A stretch of DNA of 64,000 bases from Octopus vulgaris (taxonomy: Eukaryota): the NCBI GenBank assembly GCA_951406725.2, contig OX597831.1:68882001-68946000 (forward strand), written 5' to 3'. Of this stretch, positions 15,677-58,538 are shown in pieces (the first letter of the stretch is position 1; each line of letters starts with the position of its first letter). Made by a program: the position numbers and the translations under genes. The notes beneath the pieces were generated by a model. That model had not been told where the DNA came from. It was given only the letters and a program-made list of their open reading frames with translations, and ran no database searches.

Positions 15677-16064
15677 CTACCATACTGATTAGTCTACCAT
15701 ACTGATTAGTCTACCATACTGATTAGTCTACCATACTGATTAGTCTACCATACTGATTAGTCTACCATACTGATTAGTCTACCATACTGATTAGTCTACC
15801 ATACTGATTAGTCTACCATACTGATTAGTCTACCATACTGATTAGTCTACCATACTGATTAGTCTACCATACTGATTAGTCTACCATACTGATTAGTCTA
15901 CCATACTGATTAGTCTACCATACTGATTAGTCTACCATACTGATTAGTCTACCATACTGATTAGTCTACCATACTGATTAGTCTACCATACTGATTAGTC
16001 TACCATACTGATTAGTCTACCATACTGATTAGTCTACCATACTGATTAGTCTACCATACTGATT
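15677..16064. repeat. Perfect 17-bp minisatellite (CTACCATACTGATTAGT) x ~22.8
   Basis: No variant units seen. Confidence 0.95.
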
Positions 16065-30888: not shown

Positions 30889-31015
30889 TTAAGTACAACT
30901 GTCTCTCCTTATGCATACACACACATGTGTGTCTCATTTTCATTAAATGTAATAGAAATTTTGAATTCATTTAATACAAGATACAATTTTGAGTGAAAAT
31001 GCTTAAGCAGTTAAA

Positions 31016-31582
31016 GGTGCAGGAGTGGGTGTGTGGTAAGTAGCTTGTTTACCAACCACATGGTTCCGGGTTCAGTCCCACTGCATGGCACCTTGGGCAA
31101 GTGTCTTCTAACTATAGCCTCAGGCCGGCTGACCAAAGCCTTGTGAGTGGATTTGGTAGACGGAAACTGAAAAGAAGCCCAAGACGCAGGAGTGGCTGTG
31201 TGGTAAGTAGCTTGCTAACTAGCCTCATGGGTCTCGGTTCAGTCCCACTGCGTGGCATCTTGGGCAAATGTCTTCTGCTATAGCCCCGGGCTGACCAATG
31301 CCTTGTGAGTGGATTTGGTAGACGGAAACTGAAAGAAGCCTGTTGTATATATGTATATATATATGTATGTGTGTGTTTGTGTGTCTGTGTTTGTCTCCCT
31401 AGCATTGCTTGACAACCGATGCTGGTGTGTTTACGTCCCCGTCACTTAGCAGTTCAGCAAAAGGGACCAATAGAATAAGTACTGGGCTTACAAAGAATAA
31501 GTCCCGGGGTCGATTTGCTCGATTAAAGGCGGTGCTCCAGCAAGGCCGCAGTCAAATGACTGAAACAAGTAAAAAAAAGAGT
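31016..31582 (+). mobile_element. SINE family A head-dimer (5' half followed by a full copy)
   Basis: Two tRNA heads at 31016 and 31183. Confidence 0.9.
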
Positions 31583-31880: not shown

Positions 31881-31919
<39 letters not shown>

Positions 31920-32189
31920 TTAATAAGGGTGAGAGAATTAGATACTAATTTAATAGTATATTTATTCAACACCAAGTGGCCTAGTGCTCCGAGAAACCTG
32001 GATTATTATAATATTTTATAACATATTATAATATTTTTACAAAATAAATATAAGAGAGTGGTCACTATATTGCTCACTCTAGCACCAGTTAATCCAAAAG
32101 GTTTCAACCACGAAAATACATGTTTCCCATGAAAGTCAGTACGATTGTTAGCTCACACGGACAGGGCAAATAAAAAATAACAAAAATAC

Positions 32190-32284
32190 AGATTATTTTG
32201 GGACAATTGTTTCGCTATTAATGAATTAAATGTAATTTTACTTACAAAAAAAATCCATTTGTAGCTCGTCAGCCAAAACTATCT
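32190..32284 (-). ncRNA. Type I hammerhead ribozyme, intact core, copy 1
   Basis: agatagttttgg-CTGACGA-GCTA(44 nt)TAGC-GAAA-C(aatt)GTC-ccaaaataatct. Confidence 0.85.
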
Positions 32285-32725
32285 GGATGAAATCCACTCA
32301 ATCACACGCCAGATTTTACCATAACGATAAATACGCGTGTGGTTCAATTGATTACATCCGACGCTATAATTCAAATGCCCCAACCAACAGCGCGCCAAAC
32401 TTTCACGGAAAACAAATACAGCATTTAGAAATAAATGCAGCATAATTATAATTAATTAATAAGGGTGAGAGAATTAGATACTAATTTAATAGTATATTTA
32501 TTCAACACCAAGTGGCCTAGTGCTCCGAGAAACCTGGATTATTATAATATTTTATAACATATTATAATATTTTTACAAAATAAATATAAGAGAGTGGTCA
32601 CTATATTGCTCACTCTAGCACCAGTTAATCCAAAAGGTTTCAACCACGAAAATACATGTTTCCCATGAAAGTCAGTACGATTGTTAGCTCACACGGACAG
32701 GGCAAATAAAAAATAACAAAAATAC

Positions 32726-32820
32726 AGATTATTTTGGGACAATTGTTTCGCTATTAATGAATTAAATGTAATTTTACTTACAAAAAAAATCCATTTGTAG
32801 CTCGTCAGCCAAAACTATCT
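32726..32820 (-). ncRNA. Type I hammerhead ribozyme, intact core, copy 2
   Basis: Identical to 32190-32284. Confidence 0.85.
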
Positions 32821-33044
32821 GGATGAAATCCACTCAATCACACGCCAGATTTTACCATAACGATAAATACGCGTGTGGTTCAATTGATTACATCCGACGT
32901 TATAATTCAAATGCCCCAACCAACAGCGCGCCAAACTTTCACGGAAAACAAATACAGCATTTAGAAATAAATGCAGCATAATTATAATTAATTAATAAGG
33001 GTGAGAGAATTAGATACTAATTTAATAGTATATTTATTCAACAA

Positions 33045-33321
33045 TAGCAATTAAGGACAACTTCTTAATAAGGAAAACTTAACAAGAAATTATCGGGTAG
33101 ATAGCGTGAAAAACCTCATAAAAGAAAAATTTCGAAAATAATTCTTTCTTATTGAACATATTAATTTATATATTTATATATAATGCCCTCTATATATAAA
33201 TTAATATGTTCAATAAGAAAGAATTATTTTCGAAATTTTTTCTTTTATGAGGTTTTTCACGCTATCTACCCGATAATTTCTTGTTAAGTTTTCCTTATTA
33301 AGAAGTTGTCCTTAATTGCTA
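33045..33321. repeat. Near-perfect foldback, ~129-bp arms, 18-nt spacer
   Basis: 33045-33173 is the reverse complement of 33192-33321. Confidence 0.9.
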
Positions 33322-34050
33322 AATTTTTATTCCGAGAAAACTTTTCCTTTCCCGAAATGCAATTCGTAAAAGTCTGCCATTTACCGGATGTAATATATGT
33401 AAACCCACCCATGTGCTTCGTTGAAGTTGATCAGATAGTTGCTCGGCTTAGACGAGTTGGGTTCGTTTATTTATAATACGTCCAGACTTGCTGATGTATA
33501 CAGAGGTATGAAATCACAGGTGATACAAGTCCATATTTTTAAATGTCTTACTTTGAAAAATTGCATTCGGTGGGATTAGTAAAATTTTTGGTAGAAATGA
33601 CTAATTTTGTCCCTCTTAGCGTGTGGCATGTATCTCATTATAAAAGGCAGATTTTATCTGCCTCCCTTTGGGAGTTATACAAATCTACAATATAGGATTT
33701 CTTCAATTACAATTTACCTAGCATTTTTAAGAGTACAATGCATTGCGTCATGCCAGGTCCAGTTTTTAAAATTTAAACTCCAATTAAGCAAAATTTCCAG
33801 AAAACTCACATTCTGGTGTGTGTGTCAAATGCTTTTCTTAGTCTGGTTTACACCACACGCAAACGCACACACACAGTGGGCAACGAATAAAATGAAAGTA
33901 ATTGACTTACTGTAGTGAGTGATTCTTTCACTCTGCCTCCCACTTCCTCTTTCCACACATAGACACGCAAATATATAAATAAAATTGTAAGCTAACGTGC
34001 GTGTGTGTGAGTGGGTGTGTGTGGGTGTGCGCGTGTGTGTGTGTGTGAGG

Positions 34051-34081
<31 letters not shown>

Positions 34082-34150
34082 CGTATGCGTGAGTGTGTGA
34101 CAGGAAAGTTTTTTACGACGAATATAACACCTATATCCAAGTAGCAGAAA

Positions 34151-34420
34151 GATAAGACAGTAAGGTGTGATTTGAGGGAGATTTGGCTGCTATTTCTACC
34201 ATGTCTAGCTGCCATGTAGGGGTCTCCCTCATAGGCTCATACATACATATATACATAGATAAGACAGTAAGGTGTGATTTGGGGGAAATTTGGCTGCTAT
34301 TTCTACTAGGTCTAGCTGCCATGTAGGGGTCTCCCTCATAGGCTCATACATACATATATACATAGATAAGACAGTAAGGTGTGATTTGAGGGAGATTTGG
34401 CTGCTGTTTCTACCAGGTCT
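34151..34420. repeat. 107-bp tandem repeat x ~2.5
   Basis: gataagacagtaagg at 34151, 34258 and 34365. Confidence 0.9.
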
Positions 34421-34781: not shown

Positions 34782-35040
34782 TTGCAGCGTGGAAGGTGTT
34801 TGTAAGCCATTTAAGAAACACACAAAAACCGTTACATTCACTTCAACATTTAAATTTAATTTGCCAAAATATTTTCGTCGCTTTCAGACCGCGACCTGTT
34901 CACTGACAAAAATATCGTGCTAACAGGTCGCGGTCTCAAAGCGACGAAAATATTTTGACAAATTAAATTTAAATGTTGAAGTGAATCTAACGGTTTTTGT
35001 GTGTTTCTTAAATGGCTTATAAATACCTTCAACGCTGCAA
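34782..35040. repeat. Foldback, 119-bp arms, 21-nt spacer
   Basis: 34782-34900 versus 34922-35040, with a few mismatches. Confidence 0.9.
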
Positions 35041-35198
35041 CTGTTTTCGTTCCAGCACACGATCTCAGATCAAGTCACTTGGTATGCAAGTACATCTCTG
35101 TAACTATATATATATTTATATATATATATATATATTGGTAAAAACAGTAAGATAACAAAAGAAAGAAAGAGACCTCAATATTATGTAAATAGAGGAAA

Positions 35199-35592
35199 TC
35201 TTTATATATAAAAGTGAGGTTGTGTGTCTGTCTCCTACGATTTAGATTCCTAACTACTCCCACATTTTGCGGTGCAGTTTAACCAAAACTGGGTATCTTA
35301 TAGTCGTGATTCATATCGAGACCGTCTGGGTATTAGCGCGCGTCTACGATGAGTCTACGATTTAAAAAAAAATTTACCATCAATTTTTCCCATTTTTAAT
35401 CCATTTTTGACATATATAAGGGAAGTAACTCTCTAAAATTTATTATTAAATCTCAGAACGTAAAAAGCTACAGTAACACCCTCCCCCTTTGTGGTTAGCC
35501 ATATTGAGATGGCTATTATACTTTACATCTCTAAAAATGCTTATATAATTATTTCCCTTACAAACCCGAGCAACGCCGGGCGATACTGCTAG
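35199..35592 (+). mobile_element. Non-autonomous Helitron
   Basis: A|TCtttatatataaa ... hairpin cccgagcaacgccggg ... CTAG|T; no TSD. Confidence 0.9.
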
Positions 35593-35609
35593 TGTATAAT
35601 AATGCCCTC

Positions 35610-35669
<60 letters not shown>

Positions 35670-48420: not shown

Positions 48421-48510
48421 TATATACATATATATATGCATATATATATATACATATATATATACATACATATATATATACATATATATATATATGTATA
48501 TATATATATA
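47941..48510. repeat. Long imperfect (TA)n
   Basis: Direct reading. Confidence 0.95.
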
Positions 48511-48799
48511 CTAGCAGTATCGCCCGGCGTTGCTTGGGTTTGTAAGGGAAATAATTATATAAGCATTTTTAGAGAGTTACTTCCCTTATATAACCCGAGC
48601 AAAAATCATTAAAAACGTGGAAAAATGATGGTAATTTTTTTTAAATCATAGACTCAGCGTAGATGCATGCTAATACCCAGAAGGGATCGATATGAAGGAC
48701 GACTATATGATACCCGCTTTTGGTTAAACTGCACCGCAAAAGGTGGAAGTAGTTAGGAATCTAAATCGGAGTAGACAGACACACACACACACAACTTTA

Positions 48800-48812
<13 letters not shown>
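48511..48812 (-). mobile_element. Non-autonomous Helitron, same family as 35199
   Basis: ctagcagtatcgcccggcgttgcttggg is the reverse complement of the 3' hairpin and CTAG. Confidence 0.85.
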
Positions 48813-50834: not shown

Positions 50835-53590
50835 AAAACACCTGATTGTTAGCAAGTGTTATCACTTACCTACTTCCAAAGAATAATGGAACTAGATTTC
50901 CCCAAAACTATTGGCCCATAACCTGTCTATCTACCACATAAAATTTTAACATGCTTCCTCTTGGAGAAAACATGCTTTTATAGAACAGAGTGATATTTTC
51001 CCCACTGAACAAAAAAGGGTTGATGGGGCTCATATGGATGCAAAGATCAACTTCTAATCAATAGAATGATCCTTGAGAACTGTGATAACAAATGCAGAAA
51101 TCTCAGTTCCACATAGATTGATTTGACAGCATATTGCATTCATGGATCTTGAAATCAGTGGATATCTTCAAAATTTTTCCTGTTATTTCAGACTTCCTGA
51201 AGCACAACATGTCAGTGTGGAATATAAATCTCCAAGTATACCACTCTAATGGAATACTGAATACAAACAATATTAATATCAACTGTGGCTTTTTCCAAGG
51301 TGATTCACTTTCACCTCTAATTTTGTACATAGTCCTAATGCCCCTTACAAGTGAAGCTAACAGAACAGGGTATGGGTATATAATTGACTACAAGAAAATA
51401 AACCATCCATTTTATATATGGATGACTTAAAACTTTATAGCAAAGATGATAATGAGCTTGAAAGTCTATTGTGTAATGTGAAAGCACTCACTGATGATAT
51501 TGAGATGGAATTTGACCTTGATAAATGTGCCAAGGCTACTTTCTAGAAAGGGAAATTGAAGACCTCACATTTAGTGGTGTTAGATGTTGGCAAAGTTATA
51601 AAACAACATGAGCAGGAACAAACTTACAAATACCTCAGAATAAATGAGGGCTCTGGTATTCAGCATGCAAGAATGAAACAGAAAATCAAGAAGGAATGTC
51701 ACAGAAGAGTCCCAAAATCTGAGTTAAATGTACACAACAAGGATTTAGCCTAAATTCCTTTGTAGTTCCAGTTGTTATTTACAGTTTCAATGTGTTGAAC
51801 TGGAATATGAGTGAAATAAGGAAGATTGACTGGAAAATCCGTAAGCTGTTGACTTGCAATAAGATGCACCACACAAAGGCAGATGCAGATCAACTTTACC
51901 TTCCAAAAGCCCGAGGAGGTCAAGGCTTGGTCCAATTTGACTGGCCAATATTTTGAAACATCTAACGACTTTACTTTTACTTTTTTTACTTTTACTTGTT
52001 TCAGTCATTTGACTGTGGCCATGCTGGAGCACCGCCTTTAGTCGAGCAAATCGACCCTGGGACTTATTCTTTGTAAGCCCAGTACTTATTCTATTGGTCT
52101 CTTTTGCCGAACCGCTAAGTGACAGGCACATAAACACACCAGCATCAGTTGTCAAGCAATGCTAGGGGGACAAACACTGACACACAAACATATACACATA
52201 CATACATACATATATATATATATATACACATATATACGACAGGCTTCTTTCAGTTTCCGTCTACCAAATCCACTCACAAGGCATTGGTCAGCCCGAGGCT
52301 ATAGCAGAAGACACTTGTCCAAGGTGCCACGCAGTGGGACTGAACCCGGAACCATGTGGTTGGTAAGCAAGCTACTTACCACACAGCCACTCCTGCGCCT
52401 GGATACTAAAACTTGTTAAAAACTATGAGAGACATAAGAAGCTTCATTCTGTCATGAAGAAGACCAAAAAATTTACCAGTGAGTGCATGCATAATATCTA
52501 GATTGAACAACAGGATGGAAATGAGGCTGCTGTTGTTGCAAAGAAGGTGAAATCAATGGCAAAGCAAAATGCGTTTGAACAATTGGCTGACAGGTGGGAA
52601 CAAAAACCTCTGCACGGTGAATATGTGGGCCATAGCAAAGAAGCTGATGTAGACCAGAAGCACACCCATCAGTGGCTATGAAGCTGAGGGTTAAAAGTAG
52701 AGAGTGAAGGCTTTATCTCAGCGGCTCAAGATCAGAGCTTATTGACCCGGAACTACCAAACCAGCATGATGAAAAATGCAAAAGACCCAAAGTGCCAATA
52801 CTGCACTGATGAGATTGAAACAGTGGACCACTTAATCTCTGGCTGTAAGGTTTTAGCATCAGTAGAGTATAAATTTAGATATGACAGAGTTGGCCAATAT
52901 CTACACTGGATAATATGTTGACTTTATGAAATCAAAACTGCTGACAAATGGTACGAGCACCATCCTAAGACTGTAACTGAGTGAGAAAATGTAATGATTC
53001 TCTGGGGCTTTCCAGTACATACAGACCAAATCATAAAAGCTAATAAACCAGATATTGTTGTGAAAGACCAAAACTATAAAATCTGTTTATTGATTGACAT
53101 GAGTATACCTTGTGGTCAAAATATCTCAGCAAAAGAATTTGATAAGCTCAGAAAATATAAAGATTTGCAGATTGAAATTGAAAAAGATGTGGCATCTCAA
53201 GACGGTTGCAATACCAGTGATTGTAGGAGCACTTGGAATGATCAAAAAGGGAACTGAAAATTATTTGAAGATGATCCCATCCGTGCAGGAAGTGCAGAAA
53301 ATTGACTTAACTGGTACGTCACATGTATTGAAAAGAGCATTGAATTTTCTTTCCTTTTCCCTCTTATTTTCTTTTTCATTTTTTCTTTTCTTTCCCTTCT
53401 TTCCTCTGTCTTTCTTCCTTTTTTCTATCACATGACTTTGTAAATAAACAAGCTGGTGTATTTATTTTGATGGCCTTCCAATGTACACAGTGAGTTTCTT
53501 TGGCCTAGGTTGAGAAGACACTCAGCAAGATATGGAAACAGAATTAAAAGAAGATAATGATAATAATAATGATGATGATGATGATGATAT
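50835..53590 (+). mobile_element. R4/Dong-clade (restriction-like endonuclease) LINE, 5'-truncated and decayed
   Basis: ITYLLPK..PITCL; GFFQGDSLSPL; YMDDLKL; DKC; CCHC (CQYC...ETVDHLISGC); KPDIVVKD..LIDMSIP..KEFDKLRKYKDL; ends in (TAA/TGA)n. Confidence 0.9.
51969..52399 (-). mobile_element. SINE family A nested in the Dong element
   Basis: Near-consensus copy. Confidence 0.9.
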
Positions 53591-57272: not shown

Positions 57273-57995
57273 AAGGAAAAAAAAAATCCTTTCTGCTACA
57301 GGCACAAGATGAAAGGCAAAGTTGACCATGACAGAATTTGAACACAGAACTTAAGGATGGGTGAAATAGTGCTAAGCATTTCACCCAGCTTCCAAATGAT
57401 TCTGACAGCTTGCCACTTTAATAATGATGACGATGATGATGATGACGATAACGGTGATGACAATAACGAGAGCTTAACCTCCCTGATTATGATGATAAGA
57501 TGGACAAACCAACCACTAAGGCAGCAAAAAAAAAATATAAAACAAAAGCCAAACAGGAAAACTTGCAGGAAATATCAAGATTGTGGAAAGAAAAACCATT
57601 GTGTGGGTAATACCCCAAATGAGCTGAGAAGCTTATGTAGATGTAAGAAGAAGCCATCAGTGGCTGCAGAGTGTTTGAAAGCCAAAACAGAAGGATTCAT
57701 CCTAGCAGCACAAGATCAGAGTCTCCTCACCCAGAACTATCAAGCTAATGTCACACACAATGAGGCAGACACAATGTGTAGACTCTGCAATGTCAAACCT
57801 GAGAGTATTGACCACATTATTGCCAGTTGCTCGGTCATTGCCCCTACAGAATATAAAACCAAGTACGATCAAGTTGGCCAATACTTGCACTGGAGCATAT
57901 GCTATCACTATGGTATCTTGCACCCTAAGAACTGGTATGAACACCATTCAGAGTCAGTCACTGAGGTAGAGAATGTTACCATCCTATGGAATTAT

Positions 57996-58538
57996 CTTTT
58001 TCTCCCCTTGTTTCTCTCCTTGTTTTTTCTGTGTCCCTTTCCGTAGAAGAGCATAGGCTTGAAACATAAAAGACTTTTTCTATTCCTGAGTAGAGTGGCT
58101 GTGTGGTAAGTAGCTTACTTATGAACCACATGGTTCTGGGTTCAGTCCCACAGCGTGGCACCTTGGGCAAGTGTCTTCTACTATAGCCTCGGGCCGACCA
58201 AAGCCTTGTGAGTGGATTTATTAGACGGAAACTGAAAGAAGCCCGTTGTATATATGTATATGTGTGTATATGTTTGTGTGTCTGTGTTTTTCCCCCCAAC
58301 ATCGCTTGACAATCGATGCTGGTGTGTTTGCATCCCCACAACTTAGCGGTTCGGCAAAAGAGACCAATAGAATAAGTACTAGGCTTACAATGAATAAGTC
58401 CTGGGGTCGATTTGTTTGACTAAAGGCGGTGCTCCAGCATGGCCACAGTCAAATGACTGAAACAAATAAAAGAGTATACATCTGTTTGTTTTGTACACCA
58501 CCTGTCTTTGTCTTTTGTTTTTTTTCGTAAACTCTCCC
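57996..58538 (+). mobile_element. PLE pLTR fragment (HHR at 58035-58075) split by a family A SINE (58092-58475, +)
   Basis: 13-bp TSD CCTATGGrATTAT at 57983-57995 and 58537-58549. Confidence 0.8.

Follow-up and report, generated by a model that had tools for sequence, protein, structure and literature searches.

A 536-base non-coding hammerhead unit of high copy number, recently inserted and likely a non-LTR retrozyme that uses the enzyme of a Penelope-like element

Introduction

Non-LTR retrozymes of animals are tandem repeats carrying type I hammerhead ribozymes, with circles found in coral, mussel and axolotl, and Penelope-like elements (PLEs) have been proposed as their partners (PMC7229834). 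Recent work ties retrozymes to the pseudo-LTRs (pLTRs) of PLEs (Li, Clavereau & Pollet 2026, 10.64898/2026.07.22.740005). Among the PLEs, a preference for (TA)n is described for Hydra and Naiad elements, Octopus families included; Hydra PLEs carry canonical hammerheads, with Hydra-1_Obim present in Octopus, and the Naiads of cephalopods are said to have been inactive for a long time (PMC8557442). In the Poseidon element PAc, reverse transcriptase (RT) initiates inside the RNA and AT-rich DNA is preferred, cleavage being dispensable in vitro, with uncut RNA as the main substrate (PMC11167929). The min-HHR build of PLEs has an extra base after A9 (PMC4209133), and the palindromic inverted junctions of rotifer Penelope inserts have been read as self-priming (PMC3846280).

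The probable host of the unit described here is a cephalopod, outside the retrozyme taxa named in the available text of PMC7229834 and Li et al. 2026. Searching the literature for octopus hammerheads, with most subscription journals outside the search, we found no description of a retrozyme, and only Craig et al. 2021 bore on the subject; words beginning 'ribozyme' are absent from the main text of the paper on O. vulgaris repeats. If the host is an octopus, the unit may be an undescribed retrozyme family. Considering that the class is described, and that its PLE origin has already been argued in print, such a finding is unsurprising; its value is that of a test case, being young, high-copy and with fixed-looking ends. 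Do animal retrozymes insert from the circle?

A tandem array of 536-bp units

Within the window, by which we mean the whole 64-kb stretch of DNA that was analysed, self-alignment keeps a period of 536 over 31911 to 32507/33043, in an array of 1133 bp, or 2.11 x 536 (Table 1). One mismatch per 597 aligned bases separates the units (32364 C / 32900 T). Tandem Repeats Finder misses the array because its period limit is 500. When the monomer is numbered from the first base after the predicted cut (nt 1), the insert reads 231-536, 1-536 and 1-291, with a terminal redundancy of 61 nt.

As expected of a retrozyme, the unit is non-coding, below 50% GC and free of LTR-type structure. Its longest stop-to-stop frames reach 69 aa on the plus strand and 58 aa on the minus strand, the shorter of these peptides gives no Pfam match, and there is no tRNA gene within the 64-kb window. 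Unlike EN+ PLEs, this locus has no RT/GIY-YIG ORF, either between the two ribozymes or nearby.

An initial sequence-only reading of this DNA had described about 2.1 near-identical 536-bp units without an ORF, and on both points our measurements agree with it. Its hammerhead in every unit is found in both full units and is missing from the remaining 0.11 unit, so that there are two ribozymes; likewise, the (TA)n in which it had the units start does adjoin the array, but read in the ribozyme sense the array ends there. Its view of 536 nt as unusually long has to be dropped: published consensus lengths of retrozyme families span 51-972 bp, with a mean of 650 in ray-finned fish (Li et al. 2026), and the size of the unit is therefore ordinary.

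Table 1. Features of the insertion and its flanks (positions in the window)
Feature	Position	Strand	Remark
Retrozyme-type insertion	31911..33043	-	2.11 head-to-tail 536-bp units
Predicted 536-nt monomer	32202..32737	-	32% GC
Type I hammerhead, downstream copy	32196..32278	-	predicted cut 3' of C17 at 32202
Type I hammerhead, upstream copy, identical	32732..32814	-	predicted cut 3' of C17 at 32738
Loop-II insert, 44-nt helix	32218..32261, also 32754-32797	-	fold model
(TA)n target	31889..31914	.	merges with element 3' end (..AATTATA)
Hairpin before 3' end	31928..31973	-	inside 61-nt terminal repeat
Inverted flank copy (source 33191-33321)	33045..33182	-	sequence comparison
Older repeat family B	33183..33631	+	forms flank, high-copy

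Hammerhead motif

Each full unit carries on its minus strand a core of CUGACGA, a stem II of GCUA/UAGC and GAAA, together with a stem I of UUUUGG/CCAAAA that can be extended to ~11 bp across one A-A mismatch. Stem III consists of an A-U and a C-G pair closing the loop AAUU, and ACAAUUGU is a perfect palindrome. All of the conserved core is in place (C3 U4 G5 A6 N7 G8 A9, G12 A13 A14, A15.1-U16.1 and H17). Searched with a full type I descriptor, the window yields these two sites and no others, while 30 dinucleotide-shuffled windows yield none; the 101-nt motif folds with z = -4.3. With a 141-base query Rfam RF00163 (Hammerhead_1) matches 32196-32278(-) at 30.1 bits and E 4.8e-6, short of the gathering score of 34, in an alignment that takes in all 45 model positions with the core intact and treats ~40 nt of loop II as an insertion; the match is absent when a 9-kb stretch is scanned. 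Descriptor and alignment together bear out the initial claim of a complete minus-strand type I hammerhead for the full units.

With a helix I of 6 bp, a helix II of 4 bp and a helix III of 2 bp plus palindromic loop, this is the build of the canonical retrozyme and, judged by its sequence, the motif is canonical and not a PLE min-HHR. The weak palindromic helix III resembles that of axolotl HHR_Amex1/2 (PMC7229834). The 44-nt insert of loop II, which had been suggested as a stem II extension able to pair, is indeed predicted to fold as an 8-bp and a 5-bp helix, leaving a CA/AA internal loop; U1.7 is present, and in the model the last A of this loop could pair with it. A contact between U1.7 and a loop A is described for extended hammerheads (PMC11875169). 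A common variant at 32258 changes an A-U pair of the insert to G-U.

Fold models and predicted cleavage

Modelled as a circle, the monomer is strongly self-paired, as are metazoan retrozymes: it reaches -150.8 kcal/mol vs -105.7 +/- 5.6 for its shuffles (z -8, 40 shuffles), with 66% of bases paired. The circle of the opposite strand, at -105.9 kcal/mol, is no better than shuffles, and that the ribozyme-sense strand alone folds beyond them counts for the retrozyme reading. Covariation is uninformative: among twelve variant sites, drawn from 40 of the 74 variants listed, one repeated the reference letter and the eleven real changes keep a pair (three), break one (three) or are unpaired (five).

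In the monomer model, stems I and II form with a probability of 0.97-1.0 and stem III with 0.0, a dimer being required; the three stems with stem I open are thus predicted through the dimer only. In the circle model, G5-A9 (GACGA) pairs with the cut-site UUGUC at a probability of 0.95-1.0. In this model the unit thereby blocks its own core, a difference from most circles of animal retrozymes, in which the core is predicted to stay free (PMC7229834).

For the real array, the free fold lies at -330.2 kcal/mol, the double hammerhead at -321.6 and two active monomers at -319.0, and in the two-motif model the corresponding values are -49.0, -45.2 and -37.6, all of these being energies that take in no tertiary contacts or proteins. 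The advantage of the double hammerhead over two active monomers, 2.6 kcal/mol in the array and 7.6 in the two-motif model, supports as a model the earlier idea that the palindromic stem III acts in dimer fashion; in the array, the core-locking ground state is lower in energy than the dimer fold by 8.6 kcal/mol. In these models, then, the dimer is the better active form, yet not the ground state. Cleavage is therefore uncertain, the core being predicted to block itself even in the dimer, and eight of nine predicted Xenopus retrozyme dimers failed to cleave in vitro (Li et al. 2026). If the unit is a retrozyme, we are mildly inclined to expect that the dimer cleaves, and slightly doubtful that a circle would accumulate.

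Family abundance, variants and transcription

Of the 24 sequencing runs listed, 20 (nine studies, three organism labels) contain half or more of the words sampled from the unit. Four runs were examined in detail, namely X1, X3 and X5, which are genomic-type, and X11, guessed to be RNA, although none of the runs listed is recorded as such. The unique left flank has a depth of 36 in X1, 47 in X3 and 5.9 in X5, with zero differences, and the summed depth of unit contigs relative to this flank amounts to ~24,800, ~12,300 and ~20,700, or to ~800, ~400 and ~670 after dividing by 31 for word overlap, a ratio that is not a copy number. Our reading of these values is a family of hundreds to thousands of copies, and in all three genomic-type runs examined the unit is a high-copy family. 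That it is also dispersed is suggested by one loose end in X11, in another (TA)n flank. Unit patterns gave no match among viral contigs. A single metagenome match (L006), at the start of a bacterial gene, was set aside as chance, another metagenome scan giving none; the 19-mer matches in prokaryote genomes were also chance (5 vs 4.3 expected, none extending beyond 22 bases).

The units of the window share letters that are rare in the family: at 31962/32498/33034, in all three terminal repeats, 79-92% of family depth has another letter, and the window alleles at 32607 and 32921 differ from 69-96% and 59-69% of depth, respectively. The letter at 32900 appears to be the family's usual one, going by contig placement and a depth dip to 0.4-0.6 near 32364. 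Such shared minority alleles are expected if the units were copied from one template or a homogenised donor, and they fit a later local doubling too.

X11 contains the unit, without the unique flank, and shows T>C changes, which read A>G in the ribozyme sense, at 32124 (31%), 32140 (32%) and 32148 (52%), in 6-7 contigs. The same letters account for 0-0.22% in X1, X3 and X5. None of the three sites has a 5' G neighbour; the monomer model leaves one of them unpaired, pairs a second and mostly pairs the third. Cephalopods are known for heavy RNA editing, and these sites are a hint of sense-strand transcription and A-to-I editing, in a run whose RNA status is guessed; they may also be alleles of an expressed copy, considering that the letters are present at low depth in the DNA runs and that the individual is unmatched. 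A literature search on edited retrozymes returned nothing relevant among the matches listed. An edited retrozyme circle in heavily editing cephalopods would, if true, be of some interest.

Insertion ends and target

The 3' end of the insert lies at monomer nt 291, in (TA)n, and the 5' end at nt 231; neither is the ribozyme cut. Since a linear cut monomer would need template jumps, the template was presumably a circle or an uncut multimer, and ends away from the cut fit internal, Penelope-type priming on either of them. If the unit is a retrozyme, we find nothing to choose between circle and uncut multimer as the source of this copy. Lying 291 nt past the cut, the 3' end matches the internal RT initiation of a PLE, but its position differs from that in PAc, 111-118 nt into an ORF with the cut at +26 (PMC11167929); the hairpin just before it is a candidate start site of reverse transcription. 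No separate target-site duplication is discernible in the (TA)n target, which shares a TATA-like run with the 3' end; for retrozymes, a duplication of >4 bp is optional (PMC7229834). The lack of such a duplication, the (TA)n target and the 44-nt loop-II helix set the unit apart from metazoan retrozymes.

At the other end, the array is joined to the flank by one extra base (33044), with no microhomology. The inverted arm that follows differs from 33191-33321 by no substitutions and by two indels (1 nt and 8 nt), and an 8-nt hairpin loop (33183-33190), closed by TA runs, separates the two. At 33095/33271 and 33122/33244 the two arms agree in letters that are not the majority ones, 71-100% of depth differing from them. 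Considering these shared letters, together with the decayed hammerhead and the apparent interruption of family B, the inverted arm is much younger than that family. Palindromic inverted junctions are also found at the 5' side of EN+ PLE inserts, but there the inverted piece is Penelope's own element (PMC3846280), whilst here it is flank. Granted the retrozyme reading, we lean towards the view that the hairpin was made at insertion, when the cut target folded back on itself; it may also stem from gene conversion, from a B parent that had diverged or from an artefact of the reads. Rfam microRNA matches at 33071-33293 and 34839-34983 fall far below gathering scores and were rejected as reflections of the DNA hairpins.

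Origin of the insertion

Like metazoan retrozymes, the unit is non-coding, low in GC, tandem and present in many copies, with a canonical type I hammerhead, and its two consecutive units with complete motifs place it within the working definition of Li et al. 2026. With the pLTR or tail of EN+ PLEs, it shares the type I hammerhead and the AT-rich or (TA)n target; as in these elements, the 3' end of the insert is internal, downstream of the cut, and the insert is a partial tandem with a short extension. The class proposed at the outset, a tandem type I hammerhead repeat that is a non-LTR retrozyme or PLE-dependent, is supported by the tandem arrangement and the complete motifs. By its sequence features the unit qualifies as a retrozyme; that it works like one, through cleavage and a circle, is a prediction. 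In our view a high-copy hammerhead unit of 536 bases, non-coding and likely a non-LTR retrozyme using the enzyme of a (TA)n-targeting PLE, was recently inserted at this locus.

How might such an insertion come about? Tandem copies would be transcribed on the minus strand, and neighbouring hammerheads would pair via the palindromic stem III and cut at sites of the 32202/32738 type, a lone copy being self-blocked. The 536-nt monomer would next be closed into a circle, and the enzyme is probably an RtcB-type ligase, which does this in vitro with the retrozymes of mussel and axolotl. A PLE GIY-YIG/RT would then nick (TA)n and prime inside the RNA at ~nt 291, just after the hairpin; reverse transcription would run for 2.11 rounds and stop. 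The other target end would fold back on its own TA run, copy ~130 bases of flank and join the cDNA. The partner PLE was not found: Hydra-1_Obim has a different hammerhead and, compared by eye, a different 3' end from those of the unit (PMC8557442, available text), and three short words of the unit gave no match in the supplement of Craig et al. 2021.

Could the unit instead be the pLTR of an autonomous PLE, in a 5'-truncated copy of which only tandem pLTRs were kept? PLEs do have type I hammerheads in their pLTRs, and tandem and inverted inserts (PMC8557442, PMC4209133, PMC3846280). Furthermore, Xenopus retrozymes match 22 elements, of which 21 are PLE termini (Li et al. 2026), and, of relevance if the host is an octopus, O. 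vulgaris has 190 Penelope-like consensus families making up 6.83% of its genome (PMC13282606). Against this stands the unit itself: it runs into itself twice, no ORF lying between the ribozymes, and its hammerhead is canonical rather than min-HHR. An autonomous PLE has an RT and GIY-YIG ORF between its pLTRs, which this locus does not have, and in the three genomic-type runs the share of contigs that continue into unlike sequence is 0, which is a weak argument, contigs in such repeats being short. On balance we regard a truncated autonomous element as unlikely.

The second unit may also have arisen in DNA, by unequal exchange between the 61-nt terminal repeats of a single 1.11-unit insert, in which case the tandem would not reflect an RNA copied over and over. 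The direct repeats that this would use do flank the unit, local DNA amplification of PLE termini has been proposed (Li et al. 2026), and the shared minority alleles fit equally; on the other hand, 1.11 units with ends off the cut still need a template of more than a unit, and at one change per 597 bases the insert looks too young to have left much time, all of which makes a later doubling improbable. Even less credit is due to an assembly artefact, be it in the second unit, in the hairpin of the flank or in both. Long reads are known to produce fold-back chimeras, and among the contigs and reads listed for the four runs none covers the entire locus or either junction. Nevertheless, one site tells the units apart and two indels distinguish the hairpin arms, both junctions take a form known for PLE inserts, and at 34782-35104 there is another head-to-head insert, independent of this one; an artefact is thus highly improbable.

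A bolder reading can be posited, which we think rather unlikely: a cephalopod retrozyme family of thousands of copies would make an abundant, ADAR-edited 536-nt circle, with the ribozyme kept off in the circle by its own core and on only in tandem precursors, and its inserts would preserve a record of rolling-circle reverse transcription that begins at one fixed internal point, along with fold-back priming of the target flank. Were this true, the inserts would offer a genome-scale read-out of how Penelope-type enzymes complete insertion.

Neighbouring elements

Two further hammerhead families lie within 2 kb of the array, namely family B and the motif at 34860-34910. Family B folds strongly (z ~ -6, 20 shuffles), gives no match in Rfam and holds a decayed hammerhead at 33484-33532 (+). 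Loose ends in X11 and X3 belong to other B copies, whose core is intact and whose stem III is longer, and several single-locus joints connect B antisense to B sense, as head-to-head inserts. A homology between the unit and family B, suspected by eye, was rejected, 57/200 and 30/200 shuffles scoring equally high. Family B appears interrupted near 33632, from about where a further high-copy repeat runs (+), with 17 X1 contigs having TA-rich loose ends before 33633; we take its start to be Helitron-like.

The motif at 34860-34910 (-) has a swapped G3-C8 core and an extra G after A9, which is of PLE type, as well as a stem I of 7 bp, a stem II of 5 bp and a palindromic stem III. It occurs in one copy and scores 11 in a relaxed scan, in which none of 20 shuffled windows reached 9; Rfam gives no hammerhead match for it. 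U3-A8 is on record as a natural core variant (PMC4209133), and G3-C8 was found only as a lab rescue (PMC11167929, available text). The surrounding 34782-35104 is a head-to-head insert that (TA)n flanks on either side; its right arm is 64 nt longer, and it resembles an inverted PLE pLTR pair with a tail.

At 35198-35592 (+) lies a non-autonomous Helitron-like element, with a relative near 48482-48811; its TC start, its hairpin and CTAG end, and its position between A and T are what we take to be Helitron end features. It splits a piece at 35136-35620 (+) that lies between two (TA)n runs and ends in the same 27-base stretch as the B start (33175-33201), possibly a truncated 3' end of family B. 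Fragments of broken non-LTR retrotransposons, presumably of R4/Dong type, occupy 51122-53435 and 57342-58046 (+), with a weak zf-RVT match below the Pfam cut-off and protein relatives at 50-67% identity, the one named being from Clytia; these are distant, the best reaching 64-67%, and did not confirm a host taxon. Beside the array, 31005-31550 presumably consists of SINEs, and it is from their look, together with the label given in the initial reading, that we take a cephalopod, probably an octopus, as host. Two simpler tandems complete the window: a 107-bp repeat in 2.5 copies at 34150-34420, and a perfect 17-bp repeat in 22.8 copies at 15677-16064.
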